Positions 4,073-29,136 of a stretch of DNA of 29,136 bases are shown here, one piece after another (the stretch's first letter is position 1; the number at the start of each line of letters is the position of its first letter). This DNA comes from an uncultured Candidatus Peribacteria bacterium (GTDB lineage: Bacteria; Patescibacteriota; Gracilibacteria; Absconditabacterales; Absconditicoccaceae), in contig CAYMVT010000001.1 in the NCBI GenBank assembly GCA_964394325.1, forward strand, positions 1 to 29,136, given 5' to 3'. The notes beneath the pieces were generated by a model. The model had not been told where the DNA came from. It made no database searches and saw only the letters and a list, made by a program, of their open reading frames with translations. A program made the translations under genes and the position numbers.

Positions 4073-7618
<3,546 letters not shown>

Positions 7619-11242: not shown

Positions 11243-11626
11243 CTATTTCAAAGTAATTGTAGCTCAAGCTTCTTCAAGCTTAGCTTTTATTTCTTCTCAT
11301 TCTTCTGGTTTTGCTCACTCCTTCACAATAGTAGGAGTTTTTTCTACAATCTCCTTAGCTTCCTTCAAACCTAATCATAAAACTTCTTTGATAACTTTAA
11401 TTACTGATATTTTTTGCTGACCAATTTCTGTCAACTCTACATTAATAGTATCAGAAGATCATTCTCATTGTCACTCACCTCAAGCAGCTCCTCCTCATCA
11501 TACAGCTACTGCAGCTGCAGATACACCAAATTCTTCCTCCAAAGCTTTCACAACTTCATTAAGCTCACTAACACTTAACTCTTTCAAAAGATCTATTATT
11601 TTTTGTCAATTTTCTGATATAGCCAT
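11243..11626 (-). CDS. rplL: 50S ribosomal protein L7/L12 (127 aa)
   Basis: [22 protein letters not shown] hinge, [33 protein letters not shown]. Confidence 0.97.
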
Positions 11627-11672
11627 TTTGTTATTTTAATTAATTAGTTAAATAAATATTCAAAAACAGTTT

Positions 11673-12176
11673 TTATTTTTTGCTGATTTGATCAACAGCA
11701 ACCACAAATGAGTGTACAGGGTATTTGATCAAGAAGGCAAATTTTCAAATCAACTCATCCTTTGATGGTAAATTAGCAATCTCCTGAACGTAAGATGCAT
11801 CTTTCCATTCACAGTCAAACCAACCTCACAAATAATCCAAACTACAATTTTTCTTTTCTTTCTTCCAATTAGAAATGGATTTAGCAATTCACTTCAAAGG
11901 AGAAAAATCATCCTCACCAAAGAACAAAGCAATCACGGAACCATCTAAACTATCATGACTAACCTCATCAAGTCAACCATTTGAAGCTGTGAATAAAAAT
12001 ATTCTCTTTTTTATTACACAAAGCTTTCAGCCATTATTATAAACATAAGTTCTAAGATCATTTATTTCATTTACTGATATTCAATACTGCTTCAATAAAA
12101 CAATATTTTTGTATGATTTAATATCAGTTTCATAGTTTTTTACAAGCTCTTCTTTTTGCTTCCTTGTCAAAGCCAT
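11673..12176 (-). CDS. rplJ: 50S ribosomal protein L10 (167 aa)
   Basis: MALTRKQKEELV, INDLR, GKLCVIKKR and IANLPSKDELIGK match L10. It lies directly upstream of rplL. Confidence 0.93.
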
Positions 12177-12199
12177 TGTTTTACAAAAGTTTTAAACTA

Positions 12200-12332
12200 T
12201 AAAAAAAGACTCCCTTTATTCAAAGGCAGTTGATAAAGAAAACTTATATTAAAGTACAAATAATCTTTTCAACCACCTAGGTAGGATTTATTTTGCCTTA
12301 TAACCACAGACAAAACCCACTGTCTTTAGTAG
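12200..12332 (-). promoter_or_regulatory. L10 (rplJ) leader RNA with terminator/antiterminator
   Basis: Carries AAAGACAGUGGG...UAAAUCCUACCUAGG, matching the L10-leader core (GUGGG pairs with CCUAC). Downstream is the hairpin ACUG-CCUUU-gaau-AAAGG-GAGU followed by U7. GGUGGUUGA can pair with UCAACUGCC, which overlaps the terminator arm. Confidence 0.72.
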
Positions 12333-12343
12333 TATTATTAATT

Positions 12344-12371
12344 TTATAATGATTTAAAAACAAAAATCAAG
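12344..12371 (-). promoter_or_regulatory. Candidate sigma70-type promoter for rplJL
   Basis: TTGATT-N16-TATAAA (or N18-TAAAAT) just upstream of the L10 leader. The AT-rich background lowers specificity. Confidence 0.35.
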
Positions 12372-12401
12372 CAAAAATGGATTATTTTTTGGAAAATTAT
12401 A

Positions 12402-17657: not shown

Positions 17658-20600
17658 TTAAAAAAATCAGTCTACTCTAAAAGGGATAGAATATCTATAC
17701 AAAAGTTCTCCATCTTGATCGTAAAGTCAAGCTCTTATATGATCACCAACAACTATATCTCATTCATAATCAGCATAATGACATGGACAAGACATACAAT
17801 TAATAGCAGAGATTCAAGCTTGTTGTTGTATAAACTGTGGAGGGAGTATTTCATCGTCTTGATCATCTTCATCGTCTTCATCAATATCATCCTTTTCATT
17901 AACCACAACCTGAATGCTGTTTTGTAGCACAGCTCATTCTTGTAAATAGATTGTCTGAACAACATTAAAACTTCATGAATTATTATAAGCATGTTTTTTT
18001 TCTATTTCATCTATTTCAAGTTGAGTTCAATCTCACATATCCCATTCTACATTTTCTATTTGTTCTTGAGTAAATCAAGTAATATCTGTATAAAAACTTA
18101 TTTCCTGATCTATTATAGGTTGTGCTTCATTTACAGACAATTCAGATCAATATCAATCCTGCTGATCATCATCAACAACTGATATATTAACTTGACTTTC
18201 TCAGACAGTTTCTCAATTTTCATCATATCAAACTGCTTTTACAGTATAATTTCAAATTTCTGTTAATTCAAAATTTAATTCATCATCTGGTCATAACTGA
18301 TGTTCATCTCAATTAATCTCCCATACAACATGATCAACATCTCACTGATAATCTACAGTACAGTTAAATTCCTGTGGTGTAAAACCACTTAGAGGGTCAC
18401 ATTTCGCCTGCAAACTAATCCCTATAGCATCCTCATCGTCTTCATCGTCTTCTGTATCAAACATATCCGAACATGCATCTCCTATACCATCTCAAGTACT
18501 ATCAATTTGATCAGGATTATCATGAAATGGACAATTATCATAGTCATCATTATCAGAAGCTAAATTGTGTTGCTCTTGAAGTCTTGATAAATCCAAGTTC
18601 TCCTCATTATAAACACACTCACCATCCTCAACTATTTCATGAGTTATCAATCACAAAAGATTTTTATTACCATCCCCAGATATATCTGAATCACAAATAT
18701 CAGGAATTCAGTTTCAATTCATATCACATTGAAATTCTTCTGAAAGCTCATCAGGAGGTTTTGCACATATATTTTCACCAAATACATTGATTGTCAAACT
18801 GGCTGTAAGAACTCAAGAACCATCATTTTTGTAAACATACACCTTTATAGTATAATCTCAACTTGAATTATAAACATGTGTCATAGACAAATTAGATTGC
18901 CAATCTTGATAATGTTCCTCAATAGTTCAATCTCCAAAATTCCATTTTATTTTACTAATTTTTTCACTAGCAAGATTTTCTAAGTTGGCCTGAAAATTAA
19001 AATTAGTTCAAACTTCAGCGGATAGTTTATCTGCATCCAAATCAAGACTTGGCAAAGAAGATCAATCCTGAATTACATTGATTGTAACAACATCTCTTAG
19101 CAAAGTTCAGTCATCAAGATTGATTTGTTGAATAACTTGATAAGTTCAATAAGAATCAAAAGCATAAGAAGGTGATAATTGATCCAAACTAAAACTATTC
19201 CCATCTCACATATTCCAGTAAATAGATGATATATCATCTTCAGTAAATCAACTAATATTTGTATCAAAATTTATTTGTTGTCAAACCATGGGTTGTAGTT
19301 CATCTACGCTTAATTCAGATCAATATCAATCCTGCTGATCATCATCAACAACTGATATATTAACTTGACTTTCTCAGACAGTTTCTCAATTTTCATCATA
19401 TCAAACTGCTTTTACAGTATAATTTCAAATTTCTGTTAATTCAAAATTTAATCCATCATCTGGTCATAACTGATGTTCATCTCAATCAACCTCCCATACA
19501 ACATAATCAACATCTCACTGATAATCTACAGTACAGTTAAATTCCTGTGGTGTAGAACCACTTAGAGGGTCACATTTCGCCTGCAAACTAACTCACTCCT
19601 GTCAAGATCAAACATTAATCATCAAACTAGCACTAACAGTTTCTCAATTCGGTTTTTCTCAAGTGGCTACAACTGTATAAATACCTTCTGAAGTATAAAC
19701 ATTACTTGGAGAGTGTCACACTCAATAAGTTCAATCTCCAAAATTCCACTGAATATTTTGTATATCTCCTACAATTTCAGCAGAAAAATTTACATATAGA
19801 TCTGCTATACCGCTAGTTTTATCAGCTGATATATCAAATCAAAATTCTTCAAATTCTTCGCAAACACTAGCATCTTGATCAGGATTATAATGTAATGGAC
19901 AAACATCTTCTCACTCTCCCCATAAAGTTGGATCAATATTTCATTGGTCATCAACCAATCAAACTGGATTTTCGTATCAATCCCCAGATATGTCTGAATC
20001 ACAAACATCTCCCACTCCATCACCATCCATATCTGATTGATTAGGATTGTAATGATAAGGACAATTATCCAGATGATTTTTGACTCAGTCTCAACTATAA
20101 TCCAAGTCAAAATCACAATCAACTATATCAAAAGTTCTACTTGAAAATTTAATCAAATCTTGTCAGGAAATAAAGTCATCCATTTGAAGTTCAGATATTT
20201 CATCATTGGAAAATATACCAAAATCATCAAGAACATTCATTTCTGCCACAGGCCACTGTCATTGAGGAATATCTGGATAAGCACTAAATCAACAATCAAA
20301 AAGATTAAAAGTACAATATTTCATATAAGTTGAAAATTTTTCATAAGAATTAGGACTACAACCAATACTTCAACACCTATCATATTCTTCATTTATATTT
20401 TGAAGATCATTAACATTTAAGTATTGATACTCAAAACTGTCTTCTTCCAAAGAATCCAACCATCACTTTACTTCTTGCCAGTTTACATCATATTCTTGAT
20501 AAACATTTTGTCTTGTAATATTAAAAATAGCTTGTATAAATTCTGAATATGTTGTATTATTCGCTCAGCAAAACTTACCAGGACACCAAGGTGAGGTATC

Positions 20601-20993
20601 TGCTGGGTATCAATTTATATAATCCTGATATCAAGCATAAGCCACACACCAGTACTGCTCCTGTCATCAATGCTTAGTATTATTATAAATAATATCTTCA
20701 AAATTTTTATCAGGTTTTGATTGAAACTCAACAAACCATTCAGAATCTAAAGTGTCCTTCCAATGGGGTGATGGTATAGAACAGTCATGACAATTAACAA
20801 AATTTAGAATTTGAGCTAGTTCATAACGACTAACAGTTTCTTTTTCAAATATTTCTTGATAAGAAAATCACACATTTTCAAGATTTTTTACAAAATCATC
20901 ATTACTATTTTCAGAAAAAGATATTCACAAAAAAGAAAACAGCAAAAAAATTAAAAAAAATATTTTGAAAGGTTTTTTTAGTATATTTTGCAT
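17658..20993 (-). CDS. Secreted acidic surface protein: signal peptide, SLH-like Cys-containing N-domain, thrombospondin type-3 Ca-binding repeats, multiple PKD domains (1111 aa)
   Basis: Signal peptide MQNILKKPFKIFFLIFLLFSFLGISFS; YWCVAYAG..DYINGYP (SLH-like); DNCP.HYNP.Q.D.DGDGVGDVCD (TSP3, two clusters); W.FGDG...Y...G.Y.V (PKD, several copies); C-terminal CMSCPC. Confidence 0.85.
18139..18418. repeat. 280-bp direct repeat, copy A (intragenic)
   Basis: Nearly identical to 19312-19591; I counted about 5 substitutions by eye. Confidence 0.95.
19312..19591. repeat. 280-bp direct repeat, copy B (intragenic)
   Basis: Nearly identical to 18139-18418. Encodes SLQAKCDPLSG.TPQEFNC...VDDDQQDGYGSEL. 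Confidence 0.95.
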
Positions 20994-21156
20994 ATTTTTA
21001 TTTTTTATTTTTAAAATCGTAAGTGATAATTATTAGAAAGCCCAAGTTATATATAAGATCCAGCAAAAAAGTCTTTTGTTAAAGTTAATTTGCATTTTTG
21101 ATGTTTTTTAGGTTTGAATTAATTATAAACATTAATTTGCTTTTGTCCATATTTTT

Positions 21157-22035: not shown

Positions 22036-23616
22036 TTAAACTACTCTCCTAATTTCATCAAGTGTTGTATATCATTGCAAAAGTTTGATATATGCATCAT
22101 CTTTTAATTTTAAGTATCAGTTTTGTCTAGCCTGAGACAGTAAAGATATTTGAGAAACTCATGAAAGAATACTATTCTTAATATCATCGTTAATCTCAAA
22201 AGTCTCTACCGCAGCTATCCTTCAAGAAAATCCATCAGCTCAACATTCTTCACATCCAGCAGGAATAGGTATATTTCAGTCAAAATTGATCTGGACATCT
22301 TTACTTATACTTTTGATTGACTTCAGATTTGATTTAATATCTTCTGCTTCAGCAACAGTTGCTTTTTTGTTTTGTTTACAGTCATGAAGTTTTCTTAACA
22401 ATCTTTGTCAAATGATTAAATTCAATGCAGGAGCAAGCATATAAGGTTTGACTCACATACTCAAAAGTCTAGATACAGCCTCAATAGAACTATTGGTATG
22501 TAAAGTAGATATTACCAAGTGTCATGTCAATGCAGCATTTATAGCAATTTCTGCAGTTTCAAGTGTTCTTATCTCTCATACCATTATCACTTCTGGATCT
22601 TGTCTTAGAACGGTTTTTAATCAATCTTCATAATTATATCAATTCTTAGGTGAAATTTGACTCTGTTGTATCCCTGGCAACTCATATTCTACAGGATCTT
22701 CTAAAGTTATTATTTTTTTACCAGGATCATTCAAATAATTTAGCATAGAATACAAAGTAGTAGTCTTACCAGATCAAGTAGGACCTGTGACAAGAATCAT
22801 TCACTGATTTGTTTTAAGATTTCTACTCAATATACTCAAAGATTCTCACATAAATCAAATTTCTGAAAATCACATTATCGACTTTCCAGAATCCAAAAAT
22901 CTCATAACAATACTTTCTCATCTCAGTCAAGGCATAAAACTTACCCTTACATCAATTTTTTGGGTCTTGAGGTCATCTTGATAACTCAAAAAATCAAATC
23001 TACCATCTTGTGGAACTTTGGAAATATTTACTCTTACTCAGGACATAAATTTAAGTTTTACTAAATATTTCTGAAAATGTTGTAAATCAAATACAAGTAG
23101 TGTCTTCAAAACTCAATCTCTTCTGACACGAAGCACCACTCAAGTTTCTTCAGGCTGAAAATGCAAGTCCGATGCTCATGATTGAAAAGCTAGCCTAATT
23201 ATTTCAGTAATAAACTCCTGTTCAGTATAATTTTGTCTGTTATCGTAAATTTTTTTGATCATATCCAATGCAAACTTTCATTTTACTGTTTTTTTGTACT
23301 TTATAGATTCTGCTTCTTTTTCTTCTTTTTTGAAAAGTTCTTCGTACCAATTAATAGCATAATCAAATCACATTTTATCAGTATAATAAAAATCACATTT
23401 GTATCACTTGGTGGAAATTCTATCTATTATCTGATTGAGAATTCAAGGATAATTATTAGTAGTTAGTACACACAAATAGTTTCATTGTCAGTCAAAAACT
23501 ACTGCCTCAGATTTTTTTGCAATATCATAAGAAAGTATCTTTACTTTTTCAAAATCTGGACTCAAAGATTTTATATCTGATAAATCTAATATTTTGTTTT
23601 TGATTTGATTTTTCAT
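22036..23616 (-). CDS. Type IV pilus / type II secretion assembly ATPase, PilB/GspE family (526 aa)
   Basis: [29 protein letters not shown]...[10 protein letters not shown], Walker [49 protein letters not shown] and a tetracysteine-like segment. Confidence 0.95.
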
Positions 23617-23634: not shown

Positions 23635-25218
23635 CTAGATTAAATCATCGTATGTATATGTATTAAAAACATATTTACCGCTTGTAGAATCTTTTTCTTT
23701 TATTTGTATTAGTGTCTCTTCAGGGACCATTCATGCTTTTGCAATTCTGATAAAATCCTGCTGATCAGAAACAAATTCTTTAGTAGATTTTCACTTTCCT
23801 GCAGGAATAAATATTCTGCACAATCAACGATTAGTAAGATATTCTTGAAGAATTTTTTCAGCACAAACATCTTCACAATCAGAAAAAGGGAAGTAATTAT
23901 ATTCATGCAATAAGTTTTTTATTACTCTTTTGGCATATGGCAAAGATACGTATCACTGCATTCTTATAACTGACTCCAAAATGTTTAATCATTCTTTTAT
24001 AGGATGTGCATTATATCAAGATTCATTTTTATTATCCACTAAAACTATCTGAAATTCAATTGATTGGGTTAGATCATCTCCCATTTTTGCCGGTCAGATT
24101 AACTTCATATCTTTGTATCACTTTCAACTAGTTTCTTTTCTTGAAGGTCATTTTTGAATAAAACTATCCATGAACTCTACAAAATCTTCGGTAAAAACAT
24201 GCTTATTTTCCCTGTAATATTTAAAATCAAAGACTTCTTTATCTTTAAAAACAATGTTTAAAGTATCTGCACCAAACAATGTATGAAAAACATGTTCCAA
24301 TAGATGAACTGCATCTTTTCAGTTTTTAACCTCTGCTTTAAATCATGCCAAATCCATTATAGATTTCATATTGTTATATTCATATTGAGAGAGCATTTTT
24401 AATAATACACTTTCTTCAGTTTTTGGTCTTCATATAAGGTCAAATTCTATTGGTTTATGTCAATTATATCATTTTGGAGATGTTTTGAATTTTTTAATAC
24501 AAAAATCATTATAAGAAACATTTTTTGCTTCCTTATTTTCAGTATTATTATCTAATGTTTTGAAATATTTTTCACACTGAAAGTTGTCTCCTATATATTC
24601 AAAATGTTCGTTGGATGCAGAAAAAAAATAATTATTTATTCTATCATAATCTTGTTTGGCTTTTTCAAGTTGTCATGAACTTCTTATCAGATACAATATG
24701 GAAATTATTTTCAGTAAATTACATGTTATTTGTTTATAAGGAGGTTTTTTATTATTTAATTTACCAGTTTTTCATTTTACAAATTTATATAAAGATTCAA
24801 AATCATTAAACATTATCTCTTCTTCCTTGTCTTTTTGAAAAAAAGATTTAGGGACTGTTCTATAAAAGACTCTTTGATATATATCAATTGCATCGTTAAA
24901 ATATTGTGCTATTAGTTTATATCACTCAGCTGAAATTTCATAATTTCCTTTGTCTCTTATATTTTCTTCTCAAACAATATTTGCTATAAAATGAAAAACT
25001 TCTTCCTTGTCAAACATCTGCATATTAAAAAAATCTATTATACTTATACCCTTTTGTTCCTTAATATGTTTATAACTAACTTCATTAAAGAAATTTTCAA
25101 TTAACATTTTAACAGTTAAATTATCAACACTTTTTTTCTTAGAGTAGTCAAGTTGTAAGAAATTATCAGCTTCTCAATGAACCTCTAACTCTTTAGTAGA
25201 TTTTTTTTTGCTTTTCAT
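23635..25218 (-). CDS. TIGR04552/TIGR04562-like protein with a RelA/SpoT-type nucleotidyltransferase domain (527 aa)
   Basis: One frame under table 25. GRPKTEESVLLKML (RxKxxxSxxxK), IMDLAGFK, SGKGYKD and IEFQIV....NESGYNAH follow the order of the RSH synthetase motifs. The helical N-terminal half resembles TIGR04552 proteins as I recall them. Confidence 0.65.
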
Positions 25219-25253
25219 AACAAATGAATAAAAAAATAAAAGGCATCTCTTTT

Positions 25254-25282
25254 ATTATATTCATTTAAACAAAATTTGTCAA
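25254..25282 (-). promoter_or_regulatory. Consensus sigma70 promoter for the nucleotidyltransferase-pilB-lgt operon
   Basis: Exact TTGACA (25277-25282), N17, TATAAT (25254-25259), ending 35 nt upstream of the ATG at 25218. Confidence 0.8.
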
Positions 25283-25312: not shown

Positions 25313-26437
25313 CTAATTTGATATATATACAGCAACATTATCTCAAACATCTTGGAAAAGCTTTTTTGCAAAATAACCAGGTAGTCTTATACATCACCTG
25401 GACCTATCACTACCGTCAGTATAGCCTGCATGTATAAAGTAAGGAAAATGACCAGGTCAATTTCAAATAATATCTAACTGTATAGAATAAGGCATTGGAA
25501 AATTGTCATATTTATAAGATACTTTCTGTGCTTGTTTGTATCAAGTAGTACGAAACAATCAATTAGGTGTATTATTCCCTTGTATTCATAGAGAAGAATA
25601 GGATGTCATTTGCAATACTCATCTATCATAATATCATAATATTCAGTTCCCCTGTCCATCTCTTTGTATTACAATAATTTCATCATCAGCTAATTCTTCA
25701 GACTTAATGTCGTTATTTTGACTGATATAATCTTCCAAATTATAATGGAAATACTTTAAAAGCTCTGGTAATATATCTTTTACATATATTTTTTGAGGAA
25801 GCTGATTTATCTGTGTATGCTCATTTATATTCAAGCCATCTTGATAACTAAAGTGCCTTTTATAGTTATTATATCAAAAATAGTATCATATATTCTTATT
25901 TATATCATTGTAATTACTTATAATAGAATCTTTTAATCTGGAAGTATTTATATGTTGAACTCAAATTTCTCATTCATAAATCTTATTCTCAAGATCTCAT
26001 ACAAATGGTTCTTGTATAGATACTTCGGATGTTTTTTTATCTTCTACTTCTTCATGTTTTTCTTTATCAGGAACGTCATCATCTAAAAAAGACTTATCAA
26101 CTGTCAATTTAATTTTTTCTCATAAGAATAATTCTTTTTTAAGTCTTCCAAAGCTCATATCATTAGATATATAGTAAGATTTATCATCGTCTCGTTCCAA
26201 CATAGTAGAAACTCTTCAATCAATTTCAATATATATATAATTAGTTCACAAGTAAGTTGAAAGATATTTATCTATAAAATCTGATGAATTATAACCACTC
26301 AAAACTTCTAGTATTTTCTTATCATTTTGATTTACAAAACTATCCAATATGTCTATTGTATCCGCACTAGCAGGAGAATTTATTCAAACAGTTAAAAATA
26401 ACATACTACTACAAAGCATACTATTTTTCTTATTCAT
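25313..26437 (-). CDS. Exported L,D-transpeptidase family (YkuD) protein (374 aa)
   Basis: N-terminal signal peptide, then C-terminal MPYSIQL...YFIHAG......SRGCIRLP...AKKLF with the catalytic His and Cys. The Gly of the SxGC motif is TGA. Confidence 0.85.
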
Positions 26438-26474
26438 AAAATTTTTCAAATATTAAATTATAAAGGTAACTATA

Positions 26475-26516: not shown

Positions 26517-29136
26517 CTAAAAATATTCTTGCAATAAATCAACAGAAAGATTGGTTATTCAGTCATTATAATTGTGTTCTTGTGATAAATAATCTTGAAC
26601 ATGAGAAAGTGTAACATTCCCAAAATATCCTGTAGCTGAAACTCAATCAGTCCAATATCATTGAGAAATTAGATAGTTTTGAAGATTTTCTACATCATCT
26701 CATGAAACTCATACTGAAAGATTTCTTTGGTAATTAAAAGTTGCTTCATCAGTAGTTTCCTCTATTGTTTCTTCTTCAATTTCTATAATTTCCATCTGAT
26801 AATAATATACAAAATCATTAATCATGGCTCTTGCATGACTTCTTGATATTTCATTTCTTTCTATATTGAAGACTACTACAGACCAGATAAACTCATTATA
26901 AACTTGTACATACTCATCTAATTCATCTTCAGTTATTTGATTGGTGTTGTATAGTTCAATAATTTTATCAAAAATCATATCTTGCAGTAAAGATATTATT
27001 TGATTTAAGTTTTTATCTCTTGCTTGATAGACTGTTTTGTTAATTTTAGGAATATCAACTTCTTTGATATAAGATGAAATAAGTTCCTTTGCCTGTTGTT
27101 TGTGTTTTTCATAGTCTTGATAATAATCCAATGCTTGCTGAGCTAGCACAGGGTCTCTTTGCTGTCTATAATCCAAGACTTTTTCAAAAGTTTTTCTAAA
27201 GTTATCAAAAAGTTCTTCTTTTATCCAAAAAAGATTATCACTTACCAAAGATCTATTTTCTATATATTCAACCTCTCTTTCAAATATATCAGAAACTTGA
27301 TTCATAGCTGGTTGAAGATTTTGTGGAGCTCTATTTGTTAAGCTTTCTCTAACTCATTGACTAGTCTGTCATCTTCTAACAACTCTTCATTGCTCATCAG
27401 CTTCAATTGTTTCTTCGTATTCATCATCAATTTCTTCTATATAATAAATTTTTTCTTCTTCATCGTCTATATCCTCATCATGATCTTCTTCATCTACATC
27501 TTCTGGGTCACAAAATTGCCCCAATTGAGAATGTCTACAGCTAGCTCCATCTACTCTTTGCCATATATAATCTCACATATGTTTTTCACATACCATTTGA
27601 TGCTCTCTGCAAATAGGTGTTCAGCCTCAACCACCTCATCATCACGGAGAAGGAGTTGTAGCTTCATCTTTTTCTTCAAAATTAGCTACAACTACAACAT
27701 CCTTACCTGGCATATCGAAATTTGCTTCCATCGCACTTTCTACATTATTTATCTCATCCAAATCATCACTTGTCCATTTTTCAAACTGATAGTCTTGATC
27801 CCAATCACCTGCTTGAAGTTCTACCACTTTTCAAACTTCATAACTTCCAGCACCTGTCAAAGTAGCATTCACATCTTGTGGGTTTTGTTCTAATATAACC
27901 TCAAATTTTTTTGTTTCAAAATTAGCTGTTATGCTTATATCTTCTCAGGGCATATCAAAATTACAACTTTTTCATTTTCATTCACAAATATCTCCATCCC
28001 ATCAATCAAAATCTGACATTTTACCCTCTTCAGCTTGCAGCTTTATTTTTGTATCAAAAATCATACCAAAACTTTCAGAATCAGTAATTTCATCTTCATT
28101 ATCATTCCAAGTTAAATTTATCTTTCAGTTCCCAGAAACATCAAGCTCCAAGTCATATTCATTACTAAAAGAATGAGACCACAATTTTGTCTCATTATCA
28201 GCAAAGTCTTCTCACATTATATACAAAGTTTTCTTATCCTGTATTGTTATTGTTTTTTCTGAATCAGTATAGTTTAGCACACTTCATTCATCTTTTAAAT
28301 CAGACTTATTATCAAGTCAATAACCATAATAAATTCTACCTTCTTCCGTTAAAGAAACATCTATATCAATACTATCTTCAAATTCTGTGTCTCATCAGTC
28401 ATCAAGATTTATATTCAAAATAGGAGCAACCCTATCAGAAGTTCTCAAAAAAGAAGTTTGTTCAAAGTATATGTCTCAATCATCATAATTACTTTGTTTA
28501 ATACTTGGACGAGCATCTCCAGCCAAAGCATTCTCTAGTTCAAAATCAACAAAATCTCATTCTCAATTTGCTCAACTAAGAGCTGTAATTGGTTGATTAT
28601 CACCTCATAATCTAATAGTATATTCATTTTTATCAACTTTATCCAAATCAAATCAAGCAGAAAAATTGACTCTAATATGAGTAACACTCCCATCTCAATC
28701 AAAATCCTTAGTTTTTGCAGAACTTATAGATATATTCTCTGTTCATTGATAACGAACAGACTGTCTTGATTCTCCGTCCAAAAACAATCTAAATATATTT
28801 GTACCAACTTGAGTATTTTCATAATCAAGTATCAACTCAAACTCACAAGGAGTATTAGTATTTTTAGCTGACAAAGTAAAATTAGTATGTATTCATTTGT
28901 TAATATTTACTTGTTCACATCCTTGTTTTTTTTTACTTGATCAAATAGGAGCTCAAGTAGGAGATGTTATTTGTATGTCCTTATCATCTCAAGTAAATAC
29001 AACTACTGTCCTAATATTTATTATTTCTCCCAAAGACACTGTTCAAATATTATTAGAATACTCTGACTTACTTTCTCATCATTTTTTACCAAGTATATCA
29101 GATCAAATTAATTCTCAATAAACTGTAGAGAAACTA
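26517..29136 (-). CDS. Large acidic cell-surface protein (5'-truncated, >870 aa) with two divergent InlB-B-type repeats, a poly-Gly linker, a helical region and a C-terminal peptidoglycan-binding domain
   Basis: The frame is open from the window edge to TAG at 26517. It contains two ...W.......NFDMPG.D....ANFE repeats, PSP-G8-TPIC, a D/E-rich tract, and RNLSVGVSGDDVENLQNYL..QGY.....ATGYFGNVT (PG_binding_1-like). Confidence 0.82.

Follow-up and report, generated by a model that had tools for sequence, protein, structure and literature searches.

Enzymes of the RelA/SpoT homologue (RSH) superfamily use GDP/GTP, adenine nucleotides or tRNA ends, and they also make (pp)pApp and pyrophosphorylate tRNA. 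The described systems closest to the one considered here are the long RSHs (RelSeq 1vj7, M. tuberculosis Rel 5xnx, B. subtilis Rel 6yxa/8acu, E. coli RelA 5kpv), the small alarmone synthetases RelQ/SAS1 (5ded, 5dec) and RelP/SAS2 (6ewz, 6fgx), and the toxic small alarmone synthetases (toxSAS) that target translation or form (pp)pApp, such as CapRel (7ztb/9erv), FaRel2 and Tas1 (6ox6), which demonstrate that the RSH fold can pyrophosphorylate acceptors other than GDP/GTP. Here, we analyze P0001, the product of an RSH-like gene located on a stretch of 29,136 nucleotides (contig CAYMVT010000001.1 of assembly GCA_964394325.1; hereafter the window, meaning this whole stretch). Its source is a tiny “vampire-type” bacterium that reads TGA as glycine and has a genome of 0.94 Mb. 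On balance, P0001 is probably a divergent RSH, a judgement that covers its identity and chemistry and does not extend to a link with the PilB-like ATPase encoded next to it.

A further group of relatives is represented by the models TIGR04552 and TIGR04562, whose RSH-like members come from Myxococcota, from bacteria of the Bdellovibrio type and from others; these proteins are uncharacterised, and papers refer to them only briefly. MXAN_4858 is a neighbour of the Myxococcus gliding G1 cluster and shows a fitness pattern like that of type IV pilus genes (bioRxiv 10.64898/2026.08.28.747804), and a TIGR04552 gene was found mutated in experimentally evolved Bdellovibrio sp. NC01 (PMC9888234).

Predicted fold and domain organization of P0001

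An AlphaFold model of P0001, computed with the family alignment as input, reached a predicted local distance difference test score (pLDDT) of 84.2 and a predicted template modelling score (pTM) of 0.88. In a Foldseek search of the PDB the best 45 matches were all RSH enzymes, with probabilities of 0.97–0.99 for RelSeq and SAS1. Superposition with VIA-align yielded Z values of 8.7 for RelA, 8.5 for RelSeq (model residues 183–400 on chain residues 210–337) and 8.3 for SAS1, the RelA, Rel and SAS1 matches having 16–21% identity over residues 181–407. The core fold is thereby shared with the long RSHs and with both kinds of small alarmone synthetase named above (Z 6.7–8.7 over ~125–170 residues). 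CapRel and Tas1 follow with Z values of 6.1 and 5.4, and DNA polymerase lambda, representing the next fold class, with 5.8. A VIA-align Z of ~8 lies at the upper edge of the range obtained with unrelated models, which counts against the assignment; the fold call is therefore based on the consistency of the hits and on the motifs described below. Taken together, the model makes an RSH fold highly probable. The initial annotation, made from the nucleotide sequence, had described a nucleotidyltransferase without a hydrolase domain, and this holds in the prediction, in which the RSH synthetase fold was recovered by AlphaFold, Foldseek and VIA-align.

Whereas long RSHs carry HD, TGS and ACT domains, Pfam detects no HD, TGS or ACT/RRM domain in P0001, which instead has a helical N-domain and a winged-helix-like C-domain on either side of the synthetase core (Table 1). 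The core itself contains an insertion of ~45 residues (316–365), and structural alignments of P0001 to Rel chains cover the synthetase domain only. A hidden HD hydrolase within the N-domain was considered and rejected, with neither a Pfam HD/HD_4 match nor a His-Asp pair in the first 250 residues. Structural neighbours in AFDB and the ESM-Atlas are unnamed proteins, proteins labelled ‘RelA/SpoT domain-containing’, TIGR04552 proteins and long RSHs, with alignments spanning residues ~31–450; the helical N-domain therefore travels with the nucleotidyltransferase core. Some of the distant structural relatives are fused to NUDIX hydrolases.

The C-terminal 128 residues, folded alone, gave a pLDDT of 88.8. 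Their best matches are winged-helix domains of JetA/MukF (Z 7.0–7.2), followed by cullin WHB, ORC and SelB (Z 5–6), values that fall within the chance range for small domains, and Foldseek returned nothing under E 0.1. An assignment of the C-terminal beta-beta-alpha-beta-beta unit as TGS/beta-grasp was discarded as unsupported, the weak matches being to winged-helix folds.

In TIGR04552/TIGR04562 proteins, too, a divergent RSH core comes after a helical N-domain and, as for P0001, no member has a known product. Unlike them, P0001 scores no match to either model, is longer, carries an added C-domain and belongs to a family nearly restricted to lineages that read TGA as Gly. P0001 thus appears to be a variant of the RSH superfamily that is nearest, and only remotely so, to the uncharacterised TIGR04552-like branch.

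Active-site motifs and catalytic potential

Like the RSH synthetases, P0001 has an RxKxxxSxxxK motif, a Mg-binding Asp, an aromatic residue on the presumed acceptor strand and a catalytic Glu-x-Gln; unlike them, it has K294 in place of Arg, GYKD, no Arg/Thr of EVQIRT, the insertion in the core and a PF04607 score under the cut-off. Each of the motifs read in the initial annotation (GRPK...S...K, DxxG with Lys for Arg, GYKD and EFQ) lies where it had been placed. GRPK corresponds to residues G263-K266 (24421–24432), and the motif runs on to S270 and K274. K294 is common to P0001, P0006, P0008, P0009 and P0010, and is R, E or Q in other relatives. The column of Y368 is aromatic in most relatives and is followed in most by Asp and Lys; here the stretch reads GYKDMK, with the Ser and His of GYxSxH replaced. 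The equivalence of Y368 to the RSH Tyr is inferred from the strand order of the model and the range aligned by VIA-align. EVQIRT has become EFQIVL, with Val and Leu replacing Arg and Thr, and an N-x-N398-E motif lies after E388.

In an alignment of 43 of the 52 relatives found (see below), R264, K266, K274, D289, E388 and N398 are invariant, the first five being counterparts of the RSH residues for ATP binding (R264, K266, K274), metal binding (D289) and catalysis (E388). In FaRel2, the Asp equivalent to D289 (D90) and the presumed counterpart of Y368 are essential for activity (bioRxiv 10.1101/2021.04.30.441581). Judged by residue conservation, the motif set of P0001 is beyond chance.

PF04607 is the only Pfam match of P0001, at 15.1 bits (cut-off 27; E 0.029; residues 263–311 on profile positions 1–47 of 113), and a six-frame scan of the genome with this model did not list the P0001 locus. 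TIGR04552 and TIGR04562 gave no match to P0001 at E ≤ 1 and none at the locus in a whole-genome scan at E ≤ 10; the other NCBIfam models did not match the protein, nor did a single-sequence phmmer search with P0001 find any match in the PDB. From the PDB, the family profile retrieved only RSH chains, with RelSeq 1vj7 as the best (E 0.026). PF04607 matches 8 of the 43 relatives (best 9.3e-7), and TIGR04562/TIGR04552 match 9 of the 43 weakly (best 1.7e-10; cut-offs 125 and 140 bits). Comparison with these three models, as suggested in the initial annotation, consequently bears out a remote kinship through the relatives and not a direct match of P0001 to the TIGR models, its PF04607 score being sub-threshold.

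Two of these observations speak against an active RSH enzyme: all RSH matches at the sequence level lie under curated thresholds, and the change from Arg to Lys at 294, together with the absence of Ser/His and Arg/Thr from the motifs, makes altered or lost activity possible. The motif replacements (R to K at 294, GYKD, EFQIVL) and the low model scores would also suit a protein that has kept the RSH fold but lost catalysis and works as an adaptor or scaffold that binds nucleotides, for instance for the PilB-like ATPase. However, the six invariant residues include three ATP-binding basic residues and two metal-binding or catalytic acids, a pattern that a pseudoenzyme is unlikely to keep because the family evolves so fast, and we regard a dead enzyme as very unlikely. 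P0001 is most likely an active enzyme, since its ATP-binding, Mg-binding and catalytic residues are invariant and Y368 would stand at the acceptor-stacking place; conservation gives catalytic activity a good likelihood, with pyrophosphokinase chemistry favoured somewhat less firmly.

In the reaction proposed, ATP would be held through R264, K266 and K274, and Mg2+ through D289 and E388. The beta,gamma-pyrophosphate of ATP would then be transferred to the 3'-OH of a purine nucleotide or of an RNA end, with the acceptor stacked on Y368. The acceptor pocket has been rebuilt, with GYKD instead of GYxSxH and neither Arg nor Thr following EFQ, so that the sequence does not point to one particular acceptor or product. 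A product other than ppGpp is possible. The NUDIX fusions of distant relatives and the histidine-kinase neighbours described below fit a reading in terms of nucleotide signals.

Other RSH and possible RSH-like proteins of the genome

The genome encodes a canonical bifunctional Rel of 747 residues (contig C13, L014:358-2601, minus strand) with HD_4, RelA_SpoT (122.5 bits), TGS and ACT domains and an intact HD motif. Given this protein, classical (p)ppGpp metabolism is retained as judged from gene content, and P0001 is therefore an extra RSH rather than the alarmone synthetase of the cell.

An open reading frame of 410 residues on contig C3 (L015:1066-2298, minus strand, code 25) contains an exact RxKxxxSxxxK followed by DxxG. 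It scores 15.1 bits with PF04607 in the six-frame scan and aligns weakly to the family profile in hhalign (E 0.031). The product is possibly another RSH-like protein, one that has diverged further than P0001. A gene for a 7TM_transglut membrane protein (L015:2337-3269) adjoins this frame.

Genetic code, distribution and evolution of the family

Read with genetic code table 11, the region yields short open reading frames and fragments only; this code was rejected for the locus, which requires code 25. The P0001 frame is open only when TGA encodes a residue, table 25 giving 527 residues with 20 TGA codons, and under table 25 the large genes of the window all lie on the minus strand. A TGA codon occupies the Walker-A glycine of the adjacent ATPase (G281, GPTGSGKT) and the TGA codons of P0001 align with Gly positions of its orthologue in Candidatus (Ca.) Vampirococcus lugosii, which argues for Gly rather than Trp. 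The database entry of the window's own protein (P0005) is mistranslated, with TGA read as Trp. The region is present in soda-lake and salt-lake metagenomes (DNA runs).

An exhaustive phmmer search of 1.84 billion representatives returned 52 relatives only, five of them below 1e-30. Most contain much Trp and little Gly, as is typical when TGA=Gly genomes are translated with an unsuitable code, and the named members belong to Ca. Gracilibacteria, Ca. Absconditicoccus praedator and Ca. V. lugosii. By these searches, the family has few members, evolves rapidly and occurs almost exclusively in TGA=Gly lineages (Absconditabacteria/Gracilibacteria). A search of 60 related genomes detected the RSH-like gene in 5 of the 36 others that belong to the same GTDB family; elsewhere there was a single marginal match. 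Terminal branches of the family tree amount to ~1 change per site, and the identity between orthologues is 31–42% for P0001 versus 63–74% for the adjacent ATPase. Wider scans of genome and metagenome contigs for such loci recovered known loci only, plus one 3.2-kb contig lacking the ATPase gene.

The V. lugosii orthologue (L001:1120-2583, GCA_018420025.1) is labelled ‘Restriction endonuclease’ in UniRef. We rejected this identity, as no nuclease family matched this protein or any of the 43 members, and the name looks wrong on that evidence. In the paper on the species, the number of restriction endonuclease genes is given as five (PMC8080830).

Patchy distribution and rapid divergence would be in line with a toxSAS/CapRel-like effector that serves in conflict or defence. 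Such a protein would be a toxin with the RSH fold that inhibits itself and, when active, either attaches pyrophosphate to the 3' ends of tRNAs or depletes ATP by turning it into (pp)pApp. Its C-terminal domain would be the sensor or autoinhibitor, and its location next to the ATPase would be a coincidence. P0001 shares with toxSAS the RSH fold and a remodelled acceptor site, CapRel and Tas1 are among its structural matches, and the extra, weakly winged-helix-like C-domain has a fold that often binds nucleic acids. However, CapRel and Tas1 are the weaker matches (Z 5.4–6.1), with the housekeeping Rel, RelA and SAS proteins scoring above CapRel (Z 8.3–8.7 vs 6.1). PADLOC defence-system models gave no match, and no antitoxin gene, pseudo-zinc-finger domain (pseudo-ZFD) or small partner gene conserved alongside was found. 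The consensus promoter, the housekeeping-like neighbourhood and the conserved pairing with a core gene also differ from what a toxin would lead one to expect, and a length of 527 residues with an N-terminal helical domain is typical of non-toxin TIGR04552-like proteins. A toxin is consequently an unlikely explanation, and we retain the divergent RSH synthetase as the preferred one.

Linkage to a PilB-like ATPase gene

The gene downstream of P0001 encodes a PilB/GspE-family ATPase that lies under the equivalog cut-offs of both TIGR02538 PilB (404 vs 675.65 bits) and GspE (397.7 vs 630.25 bits). It is one of five T2SSE ATPases of the genome, three of which are PilB-like (442, 769 and 526 residues) and two shorter, the latter being taken as PilT-like. 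The 442-residue ATPase lies beside pilC on contig C25, pilC genes being present on C25 and C74. In the 769-residue ATPase (contig C22, L041:4277-6586, minus strand), an N-terminal GAF domain is fused to the T2SSE ATPase, a fusion that suggests small-ligand control of one pilus-motor paralogue and adds a hint of signalling. The initial annotation had named the neighbour of P0001 pilB; the gene is T2SSE/PilB-like, whereas the equivalog cut-off and the location of pilC do not support the name. Coupling to type IV pilus function, as had been put forward, is for us to infer, because the ATPase is one of three PilB-like paralogues and does not lie beside pilC.

Orthologues of the orphan ATPase are present in all genomes of the GTDB family (41/41). 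The RSH-like gene lies directly upstream of this orthologue, with gaps of 1–25 bp, in the window, V. lugosii, genome G020 and A. praedator, and these four form one clade (support 99/98). Their other flanks all differ, comprising YkuD and lgt in the window, NusA, GatB and AspRS in G020, an integrase in A. praedator and other genes in V. lugosii. One sister-clade member carries an ATPase orthologue of 54% identity 3.6 kb downstream of the RSH-like gene, and in G011, G036 and G030 the two genes are found on separate contigs. We searched 20 further genomes, 18 of them with usable context: in these 18 family genomes, the genes upstream of the ATPase orthologue are unrelated, including those for an ABC-F ATPase, PheT, a sigma-70 factor, a P-type ATPase and unknowns, with no family-profile match at E ≤ 10, and hhalign on one of the unknown upstream genes was negative. 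Conservation of the linkage, on which the initial annotation had made its proposal depend, is thus half borne out, being kept in one four-genome clade and absent outside.

Distant homologues are encoded beside histidine kinases (two loci), Mur ligases, MutL and SecDF. At locus L012 of G011 (5488-7479 and 11409-12377), the genes before a distant homologue encode a histidine kinase with its response regulator. About 2 kb downstream of this homologue, a protein-kinase-like domain is fused to a lipoprotein signal peptidase (Peptidase_A8), placing a lipoprotein-pathway gene near a family member as lgt is in the window; this may be chance. In related loci, lgt was not found beside the RSH-like/ATPase pair and is unique to the window.

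It is entirely plausible, if short of probable, that adjacency to the ATPase gene and lgt is inherited gene order, and that the enzyme acts in general nucleotide signalling unrelated to pili; this explanation concerns the ATPase link only and is compatible with P0001 being a divergent RSH. The adjacency maps to one branch of the tree, unrelated genes take the place of the RSH-like gene in the 18 other genomes, distant homologues have other neighbours, such as two-component genes, Mur ligases and MutL, and the lgt adjacency occurs only in the window. Conversely, the pair has survived changed outer flanks in four genomes, at divergence down to 31% identity, and the sister-clade member keeps the ATPase orthologue 3.6 kb away.

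A functional connection is weakened further by several points. The pairing represents a single evolutionary event in four related genomes, the adjacent ATPase is not the one that neighbours pilC, and a search for transcripts that would show co-transcription returned only DNA runs from metagenomes. The motor does not need the RSH-like gene, because the ATPase is present in 41/41 genomes vs 5/36 for the RSH-like gene. With synteny as its basis, a real functional link between P0001 and the ATPase is accordingly tentative and somewhat less likely than not. The preservation of the pair in the clade of the epibiotic predators V. lugosii and A. praedator, with reshuffled flanks, suggests that P0001 may modulate, or be co-regulated with, the adjacent ATPase motor. 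In a more specific scenario, to which we assign a low probability, the vampire-type clade would use a signal other than (p)ppGpp, or pyrophosphorylation of a macromolecular 3' end, to switch a PilB-like motor dedicated to attachment to prey or to the uptake of DNA.

Putative promoter and probable transcription unit

The putative promoter of P0001 is located within the 94-bp spacer that follows the YkuD-type gene, with 35 nt from the end of the -10 box to the ATG. It is the sole perfect TTGACA-17-TATAAT match in the window (expected 0.04; present in 4/100 shuffles), and a scan of the region for promoters likewise yielded this site as the single 12/12 match. The P0001 gene is separated by 18 bp from the ATPase gene and the latter by 27 bp from lgt, and no terminator-like sites were found between the three. 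Promoter and both distances had been read correctly in the first description of the locus, and its proposal that the RSH-like gene heads an operon is probably right as well: from promoter, short gaps and uninterrupted spacing, P0001 probably opens a transcription unit that also includes the ATPase gene and lgt. A search with Rfam for a leader riboswitch or other RNA gave none, the sole match being a tRNA-Cys at 7–80.

Directly after lgt, the window contains a promoter-like site TGGACA-16-TATAAT (21122–21149, minus strand). It probably serves the next gene, which encodes a 1111-residue protein with PKD domains (17658–20993), and the three-gene string would then end just before it. Upstream of P0001, the minus strand encodes a YkuD-type L,D-transpeptidase with a long unknown N-terminal part (25313–26449) and a protein of more than 870 residues with an InlB B-repeat and a peptidoglycan-binding domain (26517–29135), both being cell-surface genes typical of the lineage.

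Table 1 Features of the P0001 locus in window coordinates
Feature	Position	Strand	Basis and remarks
RSH-like protein gene P0001, 527 aa	23635..25218	-	Code 25, 20 TGA=Gly; orthologues with 31–42% identity in three other genomes
N-terminal all-helical domain, residues ~18–200	24619..25167	-	Model secondary structure; no Pfam match; not an HD hydrolase
RSH-type synthetase (pyrophosphokinase) core, residues ~183–420	23959..24672	-	VIA-align, Foldseek, family (A1) profile
R264-x-K266-x3-S270-x3-K274, RSH ATP phosphate-binding motif	24397..24429	-	Aligns to GRPK...K of RelSeq and M. tuberculosis Rel
D289-L-A-G292-F-K294, Mg-binding Asp strand	24337..24354	-	Lys in the RSH Arg position
G367-Y368-K-D370 in place of GYxSxH	24109..24120	-	Tyr is the candidate acceptor-stacking residue
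E388-F-Q390, EVQIRT counterpart with catalytic Glu	24049..24057	-	E388 invariant
C-terminal alpha/beta domain, residues ~425–527	23638..23946	-	Winged-helix-like, then second beta hairpin; weak assignment
Putative sigma-70-type promoter TTGACA-17 nt-TATAAT	25254..25282	-	Read directly; TTGACA 25282–25277, TATAAT 25259–25254
PilB/GspE-family ATPase, 526 aa, orphan paralogue	22036..23616	-	T2SSE 4.8e-104; 133-residue N-terminal extension
lgt, prolipoprotein diacylglyceryl transferase, 283 aa	21157..22008	-	PF01790 9.5e-50; TIGR00544 154.1 bits vs cut-off 118.9

Implications for epibiotic predators

The TIGR04552/TIGR04562 proteins and the P0001 family appear to have in common, as a lead from the papers, that they occur in predatory bacteria and near surface-motility genes. 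If the ATPase were not linked to P0001, the protein would be one more member of the large, unstudied TIGR04552-like RSH branch. The analysis also corrects an annotation: the ‘Restriction endonuclease’ name of the V. lugosii protein is supported by no search here. If the motor-switching scenario were true, these bacteria would possess a private second-messenger circuit, parallel to the cyclic di-GMP (c-di-GMP) and GAF inputs of other PilB ATPases and separate from canonical Rel.

Ca. A. praedator, which carries the same RSH-like/ATPase gene pair, is reportedly cultivable with its prey. Should the product of P0001 act on the adjacent PilB-like motor, the pair would offer a testable handle on the control of attachment or DNA uptake. 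P0001 adds an RSH that looks catalytically intact, yet is rebuilt, to genome-reduced epibiotic predators with few regulators.

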